Below, in pieces: positions 28,958 to 62,335 of a DNA stretch of 64,000 nucleotides. The notes under the pieces were generated by a model, which saw nothing but the letters and a program-made list of their open reading frames with translations, was not told where the DNA came from and did not search any database. Position 1 is the stretch's first letter. The number at the start of each line of letters is the position of its first letter. The position numbers and the translations under genes were made by a program. The DNA is taken from positions 4,424 to 68,423 of the forward strand of contig CAMFOH010000001.1 of NCBI GenBank assembly GCA_945969495.1, given 5' to 3'. Origin of the DNA: an uncultured Mollicutes bacterium. Lineage in GTDB: Bacteria; Bacillota_I; Bacilli_A; RF39; UBA660.

Positions 28958-29796
28958 TGAAAGAACAAAAATTAAAAACAATAACGAATTTATTTGAAGG
29001 TAATTAAATTAGAAGTATTTGGAATAGTGAAAAAAAGATTAATATTTCAGTGTAGTAGATGTAATAGGTGTTTTAACTGAAAGTAAAATTCCAAGAAGAT
29101 ATTGGACAGATTTAAAGAAAAAATTAGTAGATGAAGGTAGTAAGTTGTACGAAAAAATCGTACAACTAAAGTTAACTTCTCCGAAAGATGGTAAAAAATA
29201 TATGACTGATGTTTTAGATACTGAAGGTATATTTAGACTTATAGAATCTGTTCCATCGCATAAGGCAGAACCTTTTAAGATGTGGTTAGCATCTTTAGGT
29301 AAAGAAAGAATAGATGAGGTTTTTGATCCTGAAAAAGCAATTCATAGAGCGATAGAATACTATAAGAATCATGGTTATCCTCTAGAATGGATAGAAAGAA
29401 GATTAAAAGCTATATTAGATAGAAATAAACTTACTAAAGTATAGAAAAGACAAGTGAATATGCTATTTAACTAATGAAATATATAAAGCTTGGTATGGCA
29501 TGAAAGCATCTGAATACAAAGATTTTAAAGGTATTAGAAAAGAGTCTTTAAGGGATAACATGAGTGATTTAGAACTTTTACTAACTGATATAGGAGATGT
29601 AACTACAAGGAAACTAGCTAAAGAACATAAACCACATGGTTTAAAGGCTAATAAAATAATAGCAAAAGCAGGCGGTGAAATAGCTAGTAATACTAAAAAA
29701 GAAATAGAACTAAAACTTGGTAAGAAAGTTATCAACAGTAAAAATAATTTAAATTATAAATATGTAGAGAATAAAGAGAAAATAGAAACTAAATAA
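28958..29796 (+). pseudogene. DinD/Bro-N-domain (DNA-damage-inducible protein D-like) gene inactivated by a nonsense codon, an A7 frameshift and a further stop/frameshift
   Basis: MKEQKLKTITNLFEGN*IRSIWNSEKKIN -(frameshift in gaaaaaaag)- YFSVVDVIGVLTESKIPRRYWTDLKKKL...TEGIFRLIESVPSHKAEPFKMWLA...LTKV* then out-of-frame C-terminal part MKASEYKDF...RDNMSDLELLLTDIGDVTT.... Confidence 0.7.
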
Positions 29797-31488: not shown

Positions 31489-32907
31489 ATGAAAAATAAA
31501 GGATTATTACTAATTTTATTTTTTTCTGTTTTATTACTGATAATTTTAATATATACAAATTATTTTAACAATGAGATATATTTTAAAAATGTTAATTCAT
31601 ATGATAAAGTAGAAGTATTTAGTAATTATAAGAATAATGATAATGTGATTGCTTGTTATGGAAACAAAATTAAATGTAATAAAATAGAATATAAAGTTCA
31701 AGGAATGGTAAATACGAAAAAATTAGGAGTTTATACACTTACCTATAGGGTAAAAAAAGATAAAAGTGTAGCTACTTTTAAGAAGAAAGTTGAAGTTGTT
31801 GATACAAAATCTCCAAAGTTAACAATAAATGGTACTTTTGAAAATGTTTGTCCAAACGGAAACGTAAGTGGAGTTACTTTTGAAGCAATTGATAATTATG
31901 ATGGAAATATAACTGATAAAATCAAATATAAAATAAAAGATAATAGGATAATATATAAAGTGACTGACTCTTCTGGTAATAGTACAAAAAAGGAGTTTGA
32001 TGTAACGATTAATGATAATGAAAAACCAACCTTAATTTTAAATGGCGAAAGCACAATATATATTTCTATTGGTTCTAATTATATTGAACCTGGTTATGTT
32101 GCAATTGATAATTGCGATGGAAATATAACTGAACAAGTTAATGTAACTACAAATTTAGATACTAATAAAAAAGGAACTTATGAGATAACTTATAGTATTA
32201 AAGATGAGTTTGGTAATGAAGTGGTTGCAAAAAGAATTGTTAAAGTTTTTCCAAAAAATAACTATAAACCAGGAGAGGTTAGTGCGAAAACAATTTATCT
32301 AACTTTTGATGATGGTCCAGGAGCCCATACTGAAAGGTTACTTGATATATTAAGAAAATATGATGTAAAAGCAACTTTTTTTGTAACTGGATATAACAAT
32401 AATTACAATGAATTATTAACCAAGGAACATAATGAAGGACATACAGTTGGTCTTCATAGCTATACTCATAATTATGGATTAATATATTCTGGTATTGATT
32501 CTTATATGGAAGATCTATTAAAAATTCAAGATAAAGTTAAACAGTATACGGGTGAGGAATCAAAAATAATTAGATTTCCAGGTGGAAGTTCTAATACTAT
32601 CAGCAAAAGATATCGTATTGGAATAATGAGTGATTTAACGAAAAAAGTAGAAGAAATTGGATTTAGATATTTTGATTGGACCATTGCATCGGGAGATGCT
32701 GGTAACACCAAAGATTCTAACAAAATAGTTCAAAATGTTATAAGTGGTTTAAAAGAAAATGATGTTAATGTTGTATTAATGCATGATATAAAATCATATA
32801 CGGTTGATGCAGTTGAAAGAATTATTGAGTATGGGCTTGCTAATGGATACACTTTTGTACCACTTACAATGGAAAGTCCTATTGTTCATCAAAAAGTTAA
32901 TAACTAA
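31489..32907 (+). CDS. Secreted polysaccharide (peptidoglycan GlcNAc) deacetylase with N-terminal Ig-like/DUF5011 domains
   Basis: NodB motifs LTFDDGP, GLHSYTH, plus LMHD; signal/TM at N-terminus. Confidence 0.8.
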   Translation: MKNKGLLLILFFSVLLLIILIYTNYFNNEIYFKNVNSYDKVEVFSNYKNNDNVIACYGNKIKCNKIEYKVQGMVNTKKLGVYTLTYRVKKDKSVATFKKKVEVVDTKSPKLTINGTFENVCPNGNVSGVTFEAIDNYDGNITDKIKYKIKDNRIIYKVTDSSGNSTKKEFDVTINDNEKPTLILNGESTIYISIGSNYIEPGYVAIDNCDGNITEQVNVTTNLDTNKKGTYEITYSIKDEFGNEVVAKRIVKVFPKNNYKPGEVSAKTIYLTFDDGPGAHTERLLDILRKYDVKATFFVTGYNNNYNELLTKEHNEGHTVGLHSYTHNYGLIYSGIDSYMEDLLKIQDKVKQYTGEESKIIRFPGGSSNTISKRYRIGIMSDLTKKVEEIGFRYFDWTIASGDAGNTKDSNKIVQNVISGLKENDVNVVLMHDIKSYTVDAVERIIEYGLANGYTFVPLTMESPIVHQKVNN

Positions 32908-32994
32908 AACGCAATTATTTGCGTTTTTTTAGTGGCTTAATAATTATTCCTCTTTAAACTTGTTTCATTAAATAATAATGAAAAGGGGGAAATT

Positions 32995-33954
32995 ATGGAA
33001 AAGAGAGGTATTGATATTTCTCATCACCAAGGTGATATAGATTTTGATAAATTAAAAGGAAATATAGATTTTGCTATGGTGAGAACTAGTTATGGAGCAT
33101 TTTATGAGGATAAAAAATATAAGCAGAATATAGCAGGTTTAGAAAGGATAGGAGTGCCTTATGGGCTATATCACTTTTCTTATGCAAAAAGTGTAGATTC
33201 AGCAAAAAAAGAAGCTGATGGTTTTATAAATATCATAAAAAAATATAATCCTACTTATCCGGTCGTAATAGATATAGAATCTTCTAGTAGAACTTCTAAT
33301 TTAAGACAAGATACATTAGTAGATATAGCAGATACAATTTGTAAGAAAATTGAAGATGCAGGATATTATGTAATGATATATGCTAACTTAGATTATTTAA
33401 ATAATAAATTAAATGATAGTAAGCTTGATAGATATGATAAATGGTTAGCTGAATGGAAAGGTAAACCTAGCTATAATAAACCATTTGGTATATGGCAGTA
33501 TTCTTCTAAAGGAAGCATTCCTGGTATAAATGGTAATGTGGATTTAAACGTTTCATACAAAGATTATCCGTCAATAATAAAAAGTAATAAATTAAACAAT
33601 AATGATAATCCTGTTATTTTAGATAAAGAAAATATTATTTCTGAAATTAATTATGTAGTAAAAAAAGGAGATAATTTAAGTAAAATAGCTAGCAAGTATG
33701 GAACTACATATCAGGCTTTAGCTAGTTATAATAACATAACAAATCCAAATAAGATATATATTGGGCAAATAATAAGAGTGCCTAATTCGTCTAGTGGTAT
33801 AAAACCATCTACTTATGTTGTAAAAAAGAATGATACTTTGATTGACATAGCTAAAAAATATGGAATTGACTGGAAAGAATTGTATAATAAGAATAAAGAT
33901 GTAATTGGAAAAAATCCTAATCTAATAAAGCCTGGACAAGTATTAGAAATATAA
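32995..33954 (+). CDS. GH25 muramidase (lysozyme) with two C-terminal LysM domains
   Basis: MEKRGIDISHHQGDIDF (GH25 active-site start), two LysM repeats YVVKKGDNLSKIA... and YVVKKNDTLIDIA.... Confidence 0.85.
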   Translation: MEKRGIDISHHQGDIDFDKLKGNIDFAMVRTSYGAFYEDKKYKQNIAGLERIGVPYGLYHFSYAKSVDSAKKEADGFINIIKKYNPTYPVVIDIESSSRTSNLRQDTLVDIADTICKKIEDAGYYVMIYANLDYLNNKLNDSKLDRYDKWLAEWKGKPSYNKPFGIWQYSSKGSIPGINGNVDLNVSYKDYPSIIKSNKLNNNDNPVILDKENIISEINYVVKKGDNLSKIASKYGTTYQALASYNNITNPNKIYIGQIIRVPNSSSGIKPSTYVVKKNDTLIDIAKKYGIDWKELYNKNKDVIGKNPNLIKPGQVLEI

Positions 33955-35253: not shown

Positions 35254-35335
35254 CAAAAAACAGGTTATACCTGTTTTTTTATTGTTTTTTAGTTAATATT
35301 ATGTTAATATTAATATAATATAGGAGTGTATAATT

Positions 35336-35949: not shown

Positions 35950-36942
35950 GTGATAACAATGAGGAAAAAAAAAAGTAAAAAAATATATGTAATAACTATG
36001 ATTTTATTCGTATATATATTATTTTTATCAGTAGGTTATGCTTTTTTTAGTGAATCTTTAACCATAAATGGTGTTGCAAGTACGGTTGATTATTATGAAG
36101 GTACTAAATTACCAGTAACATCAGTTGTAAGAAATACTAGTAATAATTATTATTTCACATCAGACTTTTCAAGTGATTATTTAATTAGTTTTCAAAGTGA
36201 ATCATGGCAAGATGATACCTACATTTTAAATATTGATAAAACATTATTAGCTAGTTTGGAAGGACAAATGATAACATATACCATATCTTTTATAAATCCA
36301 ACCGTATTAAACTATACTAATGGGGTTATTTCAACGGAAGTTATTGGTGACTCAAGTGATATAGTTTTAACTGAAGGTACTCTTTCAGCAACCGAAGTAG
36401 AACCTAATGGAACGGTTGATGTATCATTTGGAATAAAAGTTGATAGCTTTAATTCTAGTGATAGTTCTGCTAAGGCTACCATAACATATACTTATCAAAA
36501 TAAAACTAGATACTTATATTTTATTGTAAATTATAAAACAACAGGAAATTATCAAAATTTATTTTCAGATGAACTTTTATTGAACCCTTATAGTAATGGT
36601 TCTGTAATTAAAACTATTGATGGTTATTCAGTAAATAAATATCCAGCTGTCTATTATAAAGCTAGTAACCCTTCTTTTAAAGAACTATTAGAGAGTTTAA
36701 AACCAGGAGTTAAATATATGCTCATAAGAGATTATCAAGGAGATATGGGAGCAAGTAATGGAATGATAAACCTAAGAAATTCAACAGACGTTATTGTTAG
36801 AACACCAGTAGGCGTAGGAGTTAAAAGTGTTACTTTCACACTAACTCAAGAACAAATAGATAGCATTGATAGAATGTATGTATATGGTCGTGCAACAGGT
36901 GCAAATACATTTAGGTTTATTCAGTTAAGACAACTGGATTAA
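35950..36942 (+). CDS. Secreted protein with SipW-cognate-type signal, 330 aa (N-terminal half paralogous to 35336, extra C-terminal domain)
   Basis: Same signal/motif; additional 150-aa C-terminal domain. Confidence 0.55.
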   Translation: MITMRKKKSKKIYVITMILFVYILFLSVGYAFFSESLTINGVASTVDYYEGTKLPVTSVVRNTSNNYYFTSDFSSDYLISFQSESWQDDTYILNIDKTLLASLEGQMITYTISFINPTVLNYTNGVISTEVIGDSSDIVLTEGTLSATEVEPNGTVDVSFGIKVDSFNSSDSSAKATITYTYQNKTRYLYFIVNYKTTGNYQNLFSDELLLNPYSNGSVIKTIDGYSVNKYPAVYYKASNPSFKELLESLKPGVKYMLIRDYQGDMGASNGMINLRNSTDVIVRTPVGVGVKSVTFTLTQEQIDSIDRMYVYGRATGANTFRFIQLRQLD

Positions 36943-36960
36943 AATGAAAATGGAGGAATT

Positions 36961-37086
36961 ATGAAGAAAAACATTAAATTATTAGTATTAGCTTTAATTA
37001 TTTTATCTTCTATAGTGTTAGAAGCAACTAAAATATCTATGAAGTTAGGTTCATCTTATGCATATGATTTAAAACCAATGAAATAG
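36961..37086 (+). CDS. Possible 41-aa signal-peptide-bearing mini-protein (MKKNIKLLVLALIILSSIVLEATKISMKLGSSYAYDLKPMK)
   Basis: GGAGG RBS 4 nt upstream; not in ORF track (below length cut-off); located immediately upstream of the signal peptidase gene. Confidence 0.35.
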   Translation: MKKNIKLLVLALIILSSIVLEATKISMKLGSSYAYDLKPMK

Positions 37087-37167
37087 ATATTTATTGGAAT
37101 AATAACATTTGTATATTTTAAAAATAAAAAAATAGTTAATAATAAGTATAAAAAAGAAGTTAATTTT

Positions 37168-38157
37168 GTGGTTGTAGTAACAACGCTTATATATTTTCTT
37201 ATATATTTTGTATTAGGATATATTAAAGGTTTTGCTAATAATCCTTATGATAGTTCTCTAAGGGGAATAATAACAAATTTATGGACTTTTTTACCGATGC
37301 TTATTGTTAGGGAGTATGTTAGATATTACATGATTAATAATTGTGATCAAAAGCGAATTTTATCGTGGACACTATTTATATCTTTAATGTTTGTCGCTGT
37401 TGATTTAAATATTTATAAATTTGACACTTATTTTGAAACATCTCTAACAACTTTAGAATTTATTATAGAGACATTACTACCTGGTATAGTAACAAATCTA
37501 TATTTAACTTATATTTGTTATTTTGCAGGTTATAAAACATCTGTTTTATATGCTTTATTACCACAACTTGCGTTATATGTATTACCAATATTGCCTGATA
37601 CAGATTGGTCAGTGCTTTCAATTCTTAATTCAGCAGTACCATTTTTCTCTTATATATACATAAACTATATGATTAATAAAATGGATAAAACTTTAAATCA
37701 CAAAGAAGTAAAAACAGTAGATTTAAAAGGATGGCTAGCAATGATAGCAATAGTTATATTGATGGTTTGTTTTGGTGTTGGACTTTTCCCTATTGAACCT
37801 CTTGTTATCGCAAGTAATAGTATGGCTCCAAAAATTTATAAAGGTGATATTGTTATAATTCAAGATAAAGATGTAAGTGAAGTAAAAAAAGGAGACATTA
37901 TCCGTTACAAAATGGATGGATATTATGTTGTTCACCGCGTTGTTATGATAAACGAAGATGAAGAAGGAAATAGGCAATTTATAACAAAAGGTGATAATAA
38001 TGATGATATAGATTTGTATCCCGTTAAAGAATATCAGTATGCTGGTACCATTAAATTTGATATTCCATACTTAGGTTATCCAACCTTAATACTTAGTAAG
38101 CTTTTAAATACAAACGTTGATGATAAAGTGACGGTAGATAAAGGAAGAACACCATAA
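37168..38157 (+). CDS. SipW-type (ER/archaeal-type) signal peptidase I fused to an N-terminal about 180-aa multi-pass membrane domain
   Basis: C-terminal part LFPIEPLVIASNSMAPKIYKGDIVII...VVHRV...FITKGDNNDDID matches B. subtilis SipW (SGSMEP, GDNN); N-terminal 180 aa has 5-6 predicted TM helices and no counterpart in SipW. Confidence 0.7.
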   Translation: MVVVTTLIYFLIYFVLGYIKGFANNPYDSSLRGIITNLWTFLPMLIVREYVRYYMINNCDQKRILSWTLFISLMFVAVDLNIYKFDTYFETSLTTLEFIIETLLPGIVTNLYLTYICYFAGYKTSVLYALLPQLALYVLPILPDTDWSVLSILNSAVPFFSYIYINYMINKMDKTLNHKEVKTVDLKGWLAMIAIVILMVCFGVGLFPIEPLVIASNSMAPKIYKGDIVIIQDKDVSEVKKGDIIRYKMDGYYVVHRVVMINEDEEGNRQFITKGDNNDDIDLYPVKEYQYAGTIKFDIPYLGYPTLILSKLLNTNVDDKVTVDKGRTP

Positions 38158-38255: not shown

Positions 38256-38750
38256 ATGAAAAAACAAAACTTAATTATTGTTTTAATAGTATTATGCTTG
38301 ATAACCATGGCCGTGGGATATTCTGTTTTTAGAACTAATGTAGAAGTAAGTGGAAAAACTGCTGCTTTTAAGGATTTAGAAGTTGTTTTTATAAAAATAG
38401 GAGAAATTAAACAAGAAGGAAGCATTGATGCAACTGCTTTTATATCTGAGGATAAAAAAAGGGTCACCATAAATGTACCCAAACTTATGTATAAAGGAGC
38501 ATATGCTGATGTTCCAATTACTATAAAGAACGTGGGAACAATACCTGCAAGACTTGAATCTATTAGTCAATTTGGAATAGCAAATGATGCTTCTATAGAT
38601 GTTACTTATAATGGAATTGGTATTACTGATGCTGTACTTAATCCAGGTGACGAACAAAGCTTTAACGTTAAGGTTTCGTGGACACGGGATTTGTTAGGAG
38701 AAGTTAATAATTATGAATTTATAATAAGATTTAATTATATACAAGGATAA
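38256..38750 (+). CDS. TasA/camelysin-like secreted protein with SipW-cognate signal peptide (paralog 3, 164 aa)
   Basis: MKKQN...MAVGYSVFRTNVEVSG; core blocks VTINVPKLMYKGAYADVPITIKNVGTIPARL shared with paralogs 1/2. Confidence 0.6.
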   Translation: MKKQNLIIVLIVLCLITMAVGYSVFRTNVEVSGKTAAFKDLEVVFIKIGEIKQEGSIDATAFISEDKKRVTINVPKLMYKGAYADVPITIKNVGTIPARLESISQFGIANDASIDVTYNGIGITDAVLNPGDEQSFNVKVSWTRDLLGEVNNYEFIIRFNYIQG

Positions 38751-38755
38751 AGGAG

Positions 38756-39877
38756 GTGCTTTTAATGAAGAAGTTAAAATTTGAAAAAATGGACATAAAA
38801 AAAATAATCATATCATGTTTTTTAGTCATCGCTTTGGTTTTACAATTTGCTTTTTTAAGTTATTTATATAAAGCACTTACTCCTGAAGATGAGAAAAAAG
38901 ATGAAAATGTAATAATGAGTTATACTTCTAATGGTAATTTTGATTACAAAGTATACTTAAAACCAAATGAATTTATTAATGAAGAATACTTAGGACAAGA
39001 TGAAGCATATATTTTGGATTTGATTGATCATGTTCAGATAAATTCGTTATATAGTTTTTCTTCAACAGAAAAAACCAATGTTACAGGAACTAATAAATTA
39101 ACGGCTAAATTAGTTGTTTATTATAGAGAATCCGGTGATAAAAGTGGAAATCCCGAAATATTAAAACAAGAAAGTGTTATTGACGAAAAAATCATCAGTT
39201 TTAATGATAAATATTATAGTACTTCAGGCACGTATGATTTGTATTTAACTGAGTATTTACAAACGTTAAAAGAATTTCAAAGTAAGGTTAAAATATCAGT
39301 TGATGGTTATTTAGAAGTATTGCAGGAAACTGATTTTAGTGGTTTAGTTGGTGGAGCTAATTATAAAGATAATTATAATAAGACTTTAAAAATACCTCTT
39401 AGTTCATCAGTTATCAAAATAGAAAATTCAAAGTCTACTCCAAAAACAAATAAGGTTTATGAAGGAGATCTTGTAAAAACTAATAAGGCAGTAATGAGTT
39501 ACATAGTTATAGCAAATATAGTAGTTTTTCTAATAATTTGTATTTTGTTAAGAAAATTATTTATGTTTACTAATAAGTCTGAATATGATAGGGTATTAGC
39601 TAAAATACTTAAGAGTTATGATGATATAATCGTTAATACTTCAACCATTTTGGACGTTGATAAGTATAAACTAATTGAGATAGAAGAGTTTAAAGAAATT
39701 CTTAACTTATCAAGAGAACTTTTATTACCAATAATGAACTATGAGGTAATGAAAGGTAAAGAAACTTGGTTTTACGTTATAAAAGATGATATATTATATA
39801 GGTATATAATTTCAGAAGATAGATTAAAGGTAGCAAAAAATGAAAAAGAAAAAAGTAAAAAAACAAAAGAACATTAA
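38756..39877 (+). CDS. Hypothetical bitopic membrane protein (373 aa; TM near N-terminus and a second TM around residue 250), cluster-associated
   Basis: Start 6 nt after paralog 3 stop; no known motif. Confidence 0.5.
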   Translation: MLLMKKLKFEKMDIKKIIISCFLVIALVLQFAFLSYLYKALTPEDEKKDENVIMSYTSNGNFDYKVYLKPNEFINEEYLGQDEAYILDLIDHVQINSLYSFSSTEKTNVTGTNKLTAKLVVYYRESGDKSGNPEILKQESVIDEKIISFNDKYYSTSGTYDLYLTEYLQTLKEFQSKVKISVDGYLEVLQETDFSGLVGGANYKDNYNKTLKIPLSSSVIKIENSKSTPKTNKVYEGDLVKTNKAVMSYIVIANIVVFLIICILLRKLFMFTNKSEYDRVLAKILKSYDDIIVNTSTILDVDKYKLIEIEEFKEILNLSRELLLPIMNYEVMKGKETWFYVIKDDILYRYIISEDRLKVAKNEKEKSKKTKEH

Positions 39878-40568
39878 GCAAATAATAACTAATTTTGTAT
39901 TTATATCATTTGTTATACCCCTAGGATTTATCATATATAAAATAATTGTTTCACCAGCAGTTAACATAGAGAATTTATCTAACATGAAAGTTAAGACTGA
40001 TTATGTTCTTATGCTTATACAATGTTTACTTGGAATATTTGCCCTTTTTATACCAAGTATGATTTCTAAAAAGGCTAAAATAGTCATTCCTAGTAGTATG
40101 TATATTATTTATATTATATTTTTATATGCTGCAATATTTTTAGGAGAAGTAAGAGATTTTTATTATCGTGTTCCTCATTGGGATACGATACTTCATACGT
40201 TTAGTGGCGCGGGAATAGGAGCCTTAGGATTTTCTGTTATTAATTTGCTTACTAAAGAGAAGAAAGTAAACGTTAATTTATCACCATTTTTTATAGCAAT
40301 GTTTTCATTTTGCTTTGCAGTAACAATTGGTGTATTTTGGGAAATATATGAATTTAGTTTTGATGGTTTATTAGGACTTAATATGCAAAAATTTGCTCTT
40401 GAAAATGGTTCTAGATTATTAGGCAGAGCAGCCTTAATGGATACTATGAAAGATCTTATTGTGGATTCCTTAGGAGCTTTATTAATGAGTGTTTTAGGTT
40501 ATGTATCGCTTAAGTATAAAAAAGGTTGGTTAGATAAACTCTTAATTACTGAAAAAAAAGAAGGTTAA
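39840..40568 (+). CDS. Polytopic membrane protein (242 aa), possible YdjM-like membrane-bound hydrolase
   Basis: Overlaps upstream gene by 38 nt; YRVPHWDTILH motif with conserved His residues. Confidence 0.45.
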   Translation: MKKKKVKKQKNIKQIITNFVFISFVIPLGFIIYKIIVSPAVNIENLSNMKVKTDYVLMLIQCLLGIFALFIPSMISKKAKIVIPSSMYIIYIIFLYAAIFLGEVRDFYYRVPHWDTILHTFSGAGIGALGFSVINLLTKEKKVNVNLSPFFIAMFSFCFAVTIGVFWEIYEFSFDGLLGLNMQKFALENGSRLLGRAALMDTMKDLIVDSLGALLMSVLGYVSLKYKKGWLDKLLITEKKEG

Positions 40569-40762: not shown

Positions 40763-40837
40763 TGCCCTGTAGCCAAGTGGTAAGGCATCGGACTCTGACC
40801 CCGACATGCACTGGTTCGAATCCAGTCAGGGCAACCA
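40763..40837 (+). tRNA. tRNA-Gln (anticodon CUG)
   Basis: 75 nt, acceptor tgccctg/cagggca, anticodon loop cuCUGac, T-loop ggttcgaat, encoded CCA. Confidence 0.85.
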
Positions 40838-40849
40838 ATAAAATTATAT

Positions 40850-40926
40850 GGCCCGTTGGTGAAGGGGTTTAACACATCGCCCTCTCAAGGCGACATTCAC
40901 GAGTTCAAATCTCGTACGGGTCACCA
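40850..40926 (+). tRNA. tRNA-Glu (anticodon CUC)
   Basis: 77 nt, ggcccgt.../...acgggtc acceptor, anticodon loop ctCTCaa, T-loop agttcaaat, encoded CCA. Confidence 0.85.
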
Positions 40927-54065: not shown

Positions 54066-54140
54066 GGGGCTATAGCCAAGTTGGTAAGGCATTGGACTGC
54101 AACTCCACGATCGCCGGTTCAAGTCCGGCTGGCCCCTCCA
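54066..54140 (+). tRNA. tRNA-Cys (anticodon GCA)
   Basis: 75 nt; anticodon loop ctGCAac; T-arm gccggttcaagtccggc; CCA encoded. Confidence 0.8.
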
Positions 54141-54147
54141 ATTATAT

Positions 54148-54222
54148 GCAGGTGTAGTACAACGGCTAGTACGTGGCCTTGCCAAGGCTAAGACGTGGGT
54201 TCGATTCCCATCACTTGCTCCA
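54148..54222 (+). tRNA. tRNA-Gly (anticodon GCC)
   Basis: 75 nt; anticodon loop ttGCCaa; T-arm gtgggttcgattcccat; CCA encoded. Confidence 0.8.
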
Positions 54223-62137: not shown

Positions 62138-62185
62138 TATAATAGGTTATATAAAGATAAAGAAGCATATGGAGGATAACTTCTT

Positions 62186-62335
62186 TTTTTAGCGCCAGGC
62201 CTTTAAATAGGTGACGAGGACTATGGTTATCGAAATGTTCGGCGGATGCCATAGCGGACTTGTGAATCGTAAGAAATACTTTTAAAAGATAAAATCAAAA
62301 TTATAACAGAGAGGTATTTCACACAGTTGTTTTTA
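62186..62335 (+). ncRNA. glmS ribozyme (GlcN6P-responsive self-cleaving riboswitch)
   Basis: Core ...tttttAGCGCCAGgcctttaaataggtGACGAGGactatgg...gttcggcggatgccatagcggac... upstream of glmS. Confidence 0.85.

Follow-up and report, generated by a model that had tools for sequence, protein, structure and literature searches.

A stop-interrupted gene for a polytopic signal peptidase I beside putative AbpX/TasA-like fibre genes in an uncultured gut Bacilli lineage

What does a signal peptidase with a large membrane domain of its own process, and what might that domain be for? The question is raised by a locus in a 64,000-nucleotide stretch of DNA (referred to as the window) from an uncultured Mollicutes bacterium of the GTDB lineage RF39, UBA660 (assembly GCA_945969495.1, contig CAMFOH010000001.1, positions 4,424 to 68,423 of the forward strand), in which an initial annotation had described a 329-amino-acid open-reading frame (ORF) as a SipW signal peptidase fused to a novel polytopic N-terminal domain. 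SipW of Bacillus subtilis is ~190 amino acids (aa) long with one N-terminal transmembrane (TM) helix, and in bacteria and archaea alike, fibres of the TasA/AbpX type build biofilm matrices. We read the gene as encoding a dedicated polytopic peptidase of an AbpX/TasA-type fibre operon, with a non-catalytic docking or scaffold domain, and put the probability of this reading as a whole at roughly 70%. Its parts differ in strength: the identity of the peptidase and its fibre-operon context are very probable, whilst the docking or scaffold role of the membrane domain, argued by analogy, is tentative and falls somewhat short of an even chance. The host belongs to a poorly known, uncultured gut lineage of Bacilli in which the locus predicts a surface fibre, and the peptidase of the fibre subunits carries a large, highly conserved membrane domain, without family model or structural relative, that occurs in hundreds of lineages; the database label “signal peptidase I” leaves two thirds of the protein out of sight. 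Knowing the role of this domain would reveal how a type I signal peptidase acquires substrate specificity in prokaryotes, and whether an equivalent of the accessory subunits found in the eukaryotic signal peptidase complex (SPC) has evolved there.

The native gene and its peptidase domain

The 329-aa ORF, which has a GTG start and lies on the + strand, was confirmed at 37168–38157 in the ORF listing of the window. An ATG at 36961 in the same frame opens 41 codons (MKKNIKLLVLALIILSSIVLEATKISMKLGSSYAYDLKPMK) that end at an in-frame TAG (37084–86), and 27 further open codons lie between the TAG and the GTG at 37168, upstream of which inspection of the sequence revealed no convincing Shine-Dalgarno motif. 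Translated through the stop (written as X), the 398-residue product aligned along the entire length (100%) of more than 120 database proteins at 60–98% identity; nearly all of these are exactly 398 aa long and the closest are 97–98% identical. Because intact homologues match the read-through translation from end to end, the native gene has 398 codons and the 329-aa ORF is the remainder 3′ of a nonsense codon; by the sequence comparison it is not the native protein, it is a mechanical ORF bounded by a stop codon. Synteny around the gene is identical in the related contigs L001–L003 and L022–L025.

The C-terminal 140 residues of the ORF match signal peptidase I (SPase I) of the archaeal/endoplasmic reticulum (ER) type (TIGR02228, 9e-27, 93.9 bits against a cut-off of 51.85), and PF10502 and PF00717 match the same part; residues 1–185 of the ORF gave no match. 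Conservation was computed on 130 diverse members, mostly 25–35% identical to the intact homologue P0001, and in these S287, M288, H325, R326, G344, D345 and D351 are invariant, all of them intact in the window. The catalytic motifs SNSM (S287), VHRV (H325) and GDNNxDxD (D345/D351) align to SGSMEP, VHRV and GDNN of SEC11A/C, and the presence of the Ser-His(-Asp) residues therefore places the enzyme in the Ser-His class and not with the bacterial Ser-Lys dyad. Among solved structures, human SEC11C and SEC11A come closest to the catalytic domain, at 1e-12 by sequence and 8.6e-06 by Foldseek. The equivalog model of B. subtilis SipW (NF046067) scored 56.5 bits against a cut-off of 190, and by these profile matches the peptidase is SipW-like in class, belonging to the broader archaeal/ER-type SPase I, and is not a SipW orthologue. 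The initial label of SipW is thus right as to class and wrong as to orthology; likewise, its polytopic N-terminal part is borne out whilst its estimate of ~185 aa is not, as the domain spans ~250 aa with eight TM helices in a gene of 398 codons.

To what extent the fusion is shared was seen in a phmmer search of window residues 43–259 against 1.84 billion representatives, which returned 839 clusters (50% identity) at E ≤ 1e-3, 290 of them at E ≤ 1e-10. Nearly all matches to the N-terminal domain (N-domain) lie in proteins of 370–400 aa, at residues ~45–255, and this near-constant length and match position therefore indicate the same N-domain–peptidase architecture across the clusters, so that the originally proposed joining of a SipW-like catalytic domain with a polytopic one is genuine and conserved. 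Named members, labelled just “signal peptidase I”, come from Dehalogenimonas (Chloroflexota), Oscillospiraceae, Candidatus Fermentithermobacillaceae and Bacilli metagenome-assembled genomes (MAGs). All retrieved member names are bacterial, a search starting from the Dehalogenimonas member returned no archaeal names, and a word-indexed homologue search with the N-domain profile gave close relatives only. The closest GTDB species representatives (63–82% identity) are uncultured Bacilli MAGs, largely gut or faecal, and include Clostridium sp. CAG:594, Ca. Aphodocola and a “Mycoplasmatota bacterium”. Stand-alone N-domain genes were considered and rejected, since the short matches inspected (P0138 and P0181) proved to be, in one case, cut off at a contig end and, in the other, part of a chimeric contig. 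One Logan contig (P0216, 655 aa) holds a substrate-like protein fused in frame upstream of the polytopic peptidase, its N-terminal part having the same class of signal anchor as the fibre-locus proteins described below, followed by CBM49 and CBM2 domains; the fusion may be real or an artefact of read-through.

An eight-helix domain without a described family

An AlphaFold2 (AF2) model was built on P0001, which is intact and 98% identical, with the 130 diverse sequences, and reached a mean predicted local distance difference test score (pLDDT) of 92.3 and a predicted template modelling score (pTM) of 0.86 over the full length. It predicts nine long helices (3–22, 31–53, 64–89, 100–126, 130–148, 161–189, 191–207, 216–241 and 255–273), the first eight forming the N-domain and the ninth the membrane anchor of the peptidase, followed by the S26 beta-domain and a short hydrophobic helix (373–381). 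Modelled alone (residues 1–250, 43 sequences), the N-domain gave a pLDDT of 93.1 and a pTM of 0.90. Averaged over the alignment, the loops at 54–63, 127–129 and 242–254 hold 4.2, 1.7 and 5.7 lysines plus arginines and were placed inside, and the loops at 23–30, 90–99, 149–160 and 208–215 hold 0.15–1.1 and were placed outside; this charge pattern therefore predicts a cytoplasmic N-terminus and an outside catalytic domain, as a signal peptidase requires. The several hydrophobic helices noticed at the outset belong to a set of eight confidently predicted TM helices.

Several positions of the N-domain stand out by their conservation, with N106, E118, R121, G86, P209 and P212 near-invariant: N106 (100%), G86 and P212 (99% each), E118 and R121 (98% each), P209 (93%), G90 (89%), P174 (88%), Y96, Y184 and Y197 (85% each), P95 (83%), Y78 (78%), P39 (77%) and W42 (75%). 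By the inferred topology most of the highly conserved positions fall in the outer-leaflet half of the membrane or in outer loops, on the side of the catalytic domain (P39, W42, Y78, Y82, G86, GFxxxPY 90–96, GIxxN 102–106 and PILPxxxW 209–216). N106, E118 and R121 all lie within TM4, the latter two near its cytoplasmic end.

Such residues raise the alternative that the N-domain is itself an enzyme, the second in the protein: with N106, E118 and R121 as its active site, it would act as an intramembrane protease or signal-peptide peptidase and clear away the cut-off signal anchor or trim it further. Its appeal is that these three are among the most conserved residues of the domain and share a single TM helix, and that it would be economical to unite two steps of processing in a single protein. 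However, no column of the N-domain alignment exceeds 28% His, 16% Cys, 48% Ser or 40% Asp, and the lack of conserved residues of these four kinds therefore excludes the catalytic sets of exosortase, rhomboid, aspartyl intramembrane, site-2 and CPBP proteases, leaving no CPBP motifs, HExxH, GxGD or Ser-His dyad. Pfam and NCBIfam scans, run both on the N-domain by itself and on 43 diverse members, gave only scattered single-member chance matches, with no protease family among them; the N-domain profile matched no PDB sequence at E ≤ 10, and Foldseek of the N-domain matched no solved intramembrane protease, the best E value being 1.7. E118 and R121, near the cytoplasmic end of TM4, may moreover simply form a structural ion pair. 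We consider a second enzyme very unlikely.

Particular families were also rejected as the source of the domain. None of the 43 N-domains matches an exosortase, archaeosortase or sortase model in NCBIfam or Pfam and a conserved Cys-Arg-His triad is absent, and a CPBP/Rce1-type protease is contradicted by a single E118-x-x-R121, no conserved His and no match to PF02517 or any other Pfam family. An internal 4+4 TM duplication, suggested by the outer-loop strands at 91–93 and 210–212, was discarded at an hhalign probability of 0.5% between the halves. The novelty originally claimed for the N-terminal region agrees with these profile searches, which assigned neither the N-domain nor the 43 members to a described family.

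A putative fibre locus around the peptidase

Five genes around the peptidase gene (Table 1) share an N-terminus made up of a Lys-rich n-region, a hydrophobic stretch of ~17 residues and the motif (S/A)VGYA(L/F/V)F(S/R). Two of them, AbpX/TasA-like subunit paralogues of 179 and 167 aa, lie upstream, followed by a putative minor subunit and a putative tip or adhesin subunit, and a fifth paralogue (164 aa) lies directly downstream of the peptidase, ahead of a gene for a DUF5305 membrane protein. The same order (subunits, SPase, DUF5305) is found again in close relatives and also where the N-domain is only 20–34% identical (L020, L021, L026 from Dehalogenimonas, and L027), and a DUF5305 gene stands 3′ of the polytopic SPase in every examined locus with downstream sequence, distant ones included. 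A two-component system lies near the peptidase in L026 and L027. Small secreted, putatively beta-rich proteins beside the peptidase carry a junction of the form G-Y-A↓(A/L)-(F/W)-(S/T)-(E/D) that is conserved across phyla, with GVGYAAWTDEIYISGT and VAYAAWTQNITVQGN among the motifs of the distant loci. Paralogues with VGYA-type signal peptides here, and proteins with a G-Y-A-type junction in distant loci, thus accompany the enzyme, which accords with the co-occurrence with SipW-type substrates that the initial annotation had put forward as a check.

What these proteins are is indicated by comparison with solved structures. AbpX is the only significant solved relative of the 167-aa protein (9sj2, E 1.2e-3), the only significant PDB relative of a 29-sequence subunit profile (9sj2 and 9rhp, E 7e-4 and 1.6e-3) and the only one of a neighbouring protein in the distant locus L027 (E 3.4e-3). 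The single-protein alignments start at residue 2 of mature AbpX (“WSETLSLSAT” against “FSETITINGT” or “WTQNITVQGN”), from residue 25 onward (“FSETITINGT”) in the 167-aa protein, whilst the match of the 29-sequence profile covers the central part of the domain only. As the alignments begin at the mature AbpX N-terminus, cleavage is predicted after G-Y-A to give the mature N-terminus “LFSETITING...”, which fits the rule of small residues at −3 and −1. The subunit paralogues matched no Pfam or NCBIfam family and gave no match to TasA, and their putative link to the TasA superfamily consists of the weak AbpX matches and the signal-peptide junction.

The only terminator-like hairpin in the locus (35255–35279) lies directly 3′ of the second AbpX-like gene, and promoter-like sites precede 34053, 34750 and 38256; from sequence, this arrangement would fit a separate, stronger expression of the major subunits. 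At the 3′ end, a DUF2238 membrane-protein gene (39840–40568) overlaps the DUF5305 gene by 38 nucleotides (nt) and keeps its position in close relatives (L001–L003, L022–L025 and L016), and because it is absent from the distant loci it is probably not part of the fibre system. Immediately 5′ of the fibre genes (31489–33954), a gene for a GH25 lysozyme that carries LysM repeats and one for a 472-aa surface protein (Big_3, Ig-like and polysaccharide deacetylase) keep their synteny in the close relatives.

Comparison with known systems

Does this architecture have a precedent? An AbpX clade of the TasA superfamily was described in January 2026 from Thermoproteota, Bacillota and Chloroflexota, together with an AbpX-associated SPase I of bacteria and archaea that has ten TM helices instead of two and a DUF5305 protein alongside, the latter proposed as an SPase accessory and likened to the eukaryotic complex (bioRxiv 10.64898/2026.01.04.697558). 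That preprint gives the multi-TM SPase one sentence and contains no analysis of its membrane domain. The present peptidase resembles the enzyme so described in being a multi-TM TIGR02228-type SPase whose neighbours are AbpX-like subunits, major and minor, as well as a tip-like protein and DUF5305: five flanking paralogues are present, with modest AbpX matches (E 7e-4 to 3.4e-3), a DUF5305 gene is in the locus, and the number of helices is approximately ten, although the AF2 model has nine long TM helices and a short C-terminal one rather than ten. It differs from it also in the premature stop of the window copy. The statement that a fused membrane module had not been described for SipW must therefore be withdrawn, since the ten-TM AbpX-associated SPase I with DUF5305 is on record, and what the window adds beyond the recorded architecture is the nonsense allele only.

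Among other systems, the tapA-sipW-tasA operon of B. subtilis is similar in having an ER/archaeal-type Ser-His peptidase that is dedicated to fibre subunits of the TasA superfamily and shares an operon with them, and the substrates have a similar junction (G-x-(W/Y)-A↓A-F-(N/S)-D/E); in contrast to SipW, the present enzyme has 398 aa and eight extra TM helices, and the locus has a DUF5305 partner and no TapA. In the eukaryotic complex (SEC11A/C with SPCS1-3; PDB 7P2P and 7P2Q), which contains the closest solved relative of the catalytic domain, TM helices of the accessory subunits surround the catalytic subunit, and the eight-TM domain with DUF5305 may by analogy be their functional counterpart, although the N-domain resembled none of the SPC accessory subunits in the sequence and fold comparisons. 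Exosortase/archaeosortase and CPBP (Rce1-like) proteins are likewise polytopic, with ~8 TM helices, and dedicated to a cognate class of secreted protein. However, no hidden Markov model of these families matches any of the 43 members, the Cys-Arg-His triad and the EExxxR, FxxxH and HxxxN motifs are absent here, and the substrates here bear N-terminal instead of C-terminal sorting signals.

The analogy with sortase and exosortase systems had been part of the initial annotation, and the want of such matches and of conserved Cys or His in the domain tells against it. A related alternative is that the N-domain is an assembly and anchoring platform of this kind, which holds the first subunit or the growing fibre and couples cleavage to donor-strand exchange. 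The enzyme is dedicated to fibre subunits, its operon has several paralogues of a minor or tip-like kind, it is accompanied in the examined loci by DUF5305, a protein with domains on either side of the membrane, and the Streptococcus protein SipA, a peptidase-like pilus assembly factor, is among the fold matches, all of which would suit a platform. Yet the homology and the Cys/Arg/His triad of exosortase, archaeosortase or sortase are missing, the peptidase, unlike SipA, has kept its catalytic residues, and the TasA-superfamily fibres, AbpX included, assemble by donor-strand complementation without covalent transpeptidation and, in vitro, without helpers (bioRxiv 10.64898/2026.01.04.697558). 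We regard a platform as quite unlikely, and in our assessment neither it nor the second enzyme has positive evidence.

A possible mechanism

For a dedicated polytopic peptidase with a docking or scaffold domain, processing might run as follows. The Sec system would insert the fibre-subunit preproteins as signal-anchored intermediates, and the peptidase would cut after the small residues at −3 and −1 (G-Y-A), freeing the N-terminal strand “LFSETITINGT...” to act as the donor strand in subunit-to-subunit polymerisation. The eight-TM domain may serve as a non-catalytic membrane scaffold that docks the signal-anchor helix or shapes the bilayer near the active site, possibly with DUF5305, and so would play, fused to the enzyme, the part of the accessory subunits of the eukaryotic complex and confer specificity for the class of fibre subunits. 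A bolder version, which we find unlikely, is that the domain is an unrecognised module that makes a prokaryotic SPase a self-contained “mini signal-peptidase complex”: the signal-anchor helix of the TasA/AbpX-type subunits would be bound in an outer-leaflet pocket (P39, W42, GFxxxPY, N106 and PILPxxxW) and cleavage gated with DUF5305, so that the donor strand is freed only at the assembly site, or else the domain would have a new N-E-R-based intramembrane activity.

Several points weigh against a dedicated fibre peptidase with a docking or scaffold domain. The AbpX matches are weak (E about 1e-3); the tie to the archaeal AbpX-associated SPase (WP_338249487.1) is one of architecture and gene context and not of direct alignment; how near the conserved residues of the N-domain come to the active site is deduced from topology; N106, E118 and R121 in TM4 could mean an activity or ion or lipid binding rather than scaffolding; and AbpX polymerises in vitro without helpers, so that an assembly platform is not strictly needed (bioRxiv 10.64898/2026.01.04.697558).

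A premature stop and a recombined allele in this strain

Is the gene functional in the strain that was sequenced? Codon 42, at which the TAG stands, encodes Trp in 17 of the 17 closest homologues, and the stop falls within TM2 of the N-domain. The concern had been that a missed stop might separate the two halves of the fusion; an in-frame stop is indeed present, but it lies inside the N-domain and not between the membrane and peptidase halves, and the fusion is therefore not refuted. Reassignment of the stop codon was rejected, as TAG and TGA each terminate 2 of 40 long ORFs in the window and the homologues carry TGG at the site.

Between positions 36961 and 48157, four to five metagenomic contigs from the same species (L001 and L022–L025) align to the window with 99.45% identity. 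Within 60 nt of this region lie five window-unique substitutions to A (Table 1), all non-synonymous and one of them the stop, where the identity over the flanking 11.2 kb predicts ~0.3 changes per 60 nt. The cluster sits 106–165 nt 3′ of a recombination junction (36960/36961). On the other side of the junction, the C-terminal domain (~135 aa, 36538–36942) of the upstream tip-like protein and the spacer after it (36538–36960 in all) form a divergent allele, with an amino-acid identity to relatives of roughly 45%, estimated from the alignment, against 98–99.5% in the flanks; its breakpoints are at 36537 and exactly at the start codon of the peptidase, identity returning to ~99.5% at 36961. This looks like an allelic replacement of an adhesin-like domain, as far as sequence can tell.

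One explanation of the TAG is a strain-level pseudogene, in which the stop is real, neither the peptidase nor the fibre that depends on it works in this strain, and the gene cluster is decaying. The excess of unique non-synonymous changes, their closeness to the recombination junction and the working of TAG as an ordinary stop in the window argue for it. On the other hand, the remaining 340 codons show one further unique amino-acid change only and all catalytic residues are intact, the adjoining subunit genes and the DUF5305 gene are intact, and a tight cluster of substitutions in the same direction is also expected from a local consensus or assembly error. The same strain was not found among other assemblies for a cross-check: searches for identical proteins, with the 329-aa ORF and with the tip protein specific to this strain, gave no record of it elsewhere, and scans of metagenomes of the Joint Genome Institute (JGI) found neither the mutant nor the wild-type 35-mer and are hence uninformative on the TAG. 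We give the pseudogene an even chance, and take the clustered substitutions to be a real inactivating patch or a local consensus error with about equal likelihood. As sequenced, then, this copy would be either inactivated (with at best a product that is without TM1 and TM2) or locally mis-sequenced.

Table 1. Features of the peptidase gene and the putative fibre locus (window coordinates).
Feature	Position	Strand	Basis or detail
AbpX/TasA-like fibre subunit paralogue, 179 aa	34053..34592	+	signal peptide ...AVAVGYA↓LFSETITINGT
AbpX/TasA-like fibre subunit paralogue, 167 aa	34750..35253	+	AbpX 9sj2 match, E 1.2e-3
Putative minor subunit, 196 aa	35336..35926	+	same signal-peptide class (SVGYAFFSESLTINGVA)
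Putative tip/adhesin subunit, ~330 aa (327 from ATG)	35959..36942	+	same signal-peptide class
Ribosome-binding site GGAGG, 4 nt 5′ of ATG 36961	36952..36956	+	read from sequence; homologues begin at equivalent ATG
Full polytopic signal peptidase I gene, 398 codons, stop-interrupted in window	36961..38157	+	read-through translation and homologues
8-TM membrane domain, codons 1–250, no family assignment	36961..37710	+	AF2 and alignment
Window-unique substitution, V36D	37067 T>A
Window-unique substitution, I41K	37082 T>A
In-frame TAG, codon 42, Trp (TGG) in close homologues	37084..37086	+	alignment to homologues
Window-unique substitution, W42*	37085 G>A
Window-unique substitution, F52Y	37115 T>A
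Window-unique substitution, E56K	37126 G>A
329-aa ORF, codons 70–398 of the 398-codon gene; would be without TM1 and TM2	37168..38157	+
TM9, membrane anchor of the peptidase, codons 255–273	37723..37779	+	AF2 secondary structure, hydropathy
Extracytoplasmic S26 catalytic domain, Sec11/SipW type	37792..38154	+	TIGR02228
Ser287	37819–21	+	conserved catalytic residue
His325	37933–35	+	conserved catalytic residue
Fifth AbpX-like paralogue, 164 aa, MAVGYSVFRTNVEVSG	38256..38750	+	signal-peptide class
DUF5305 membrane protein, proposed SPase I accessory subunit	38765..39877	+	PF17231, 3.4e-14

Other features of the window

At 29145–29796, two adjacent ORFs of 99 and 98 aa correspond to one 213-aa gene in L001 (2190–2831), and the gene is split also in L002 and L022–L025; going by the sequences, this would be a second gene with a polymorphic disruption in the species. 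A tRNA pair, Gln(CTG)-Glu(CTC), lies just downstream of the fibre locus at 40763–40926 and another, Cys(GCA)-Gly(GCC), at 54066–54222, and a glmS ribozyme/riboswitch (RF00234, 70.6 bits) is found on the + strand at 62180–62329.

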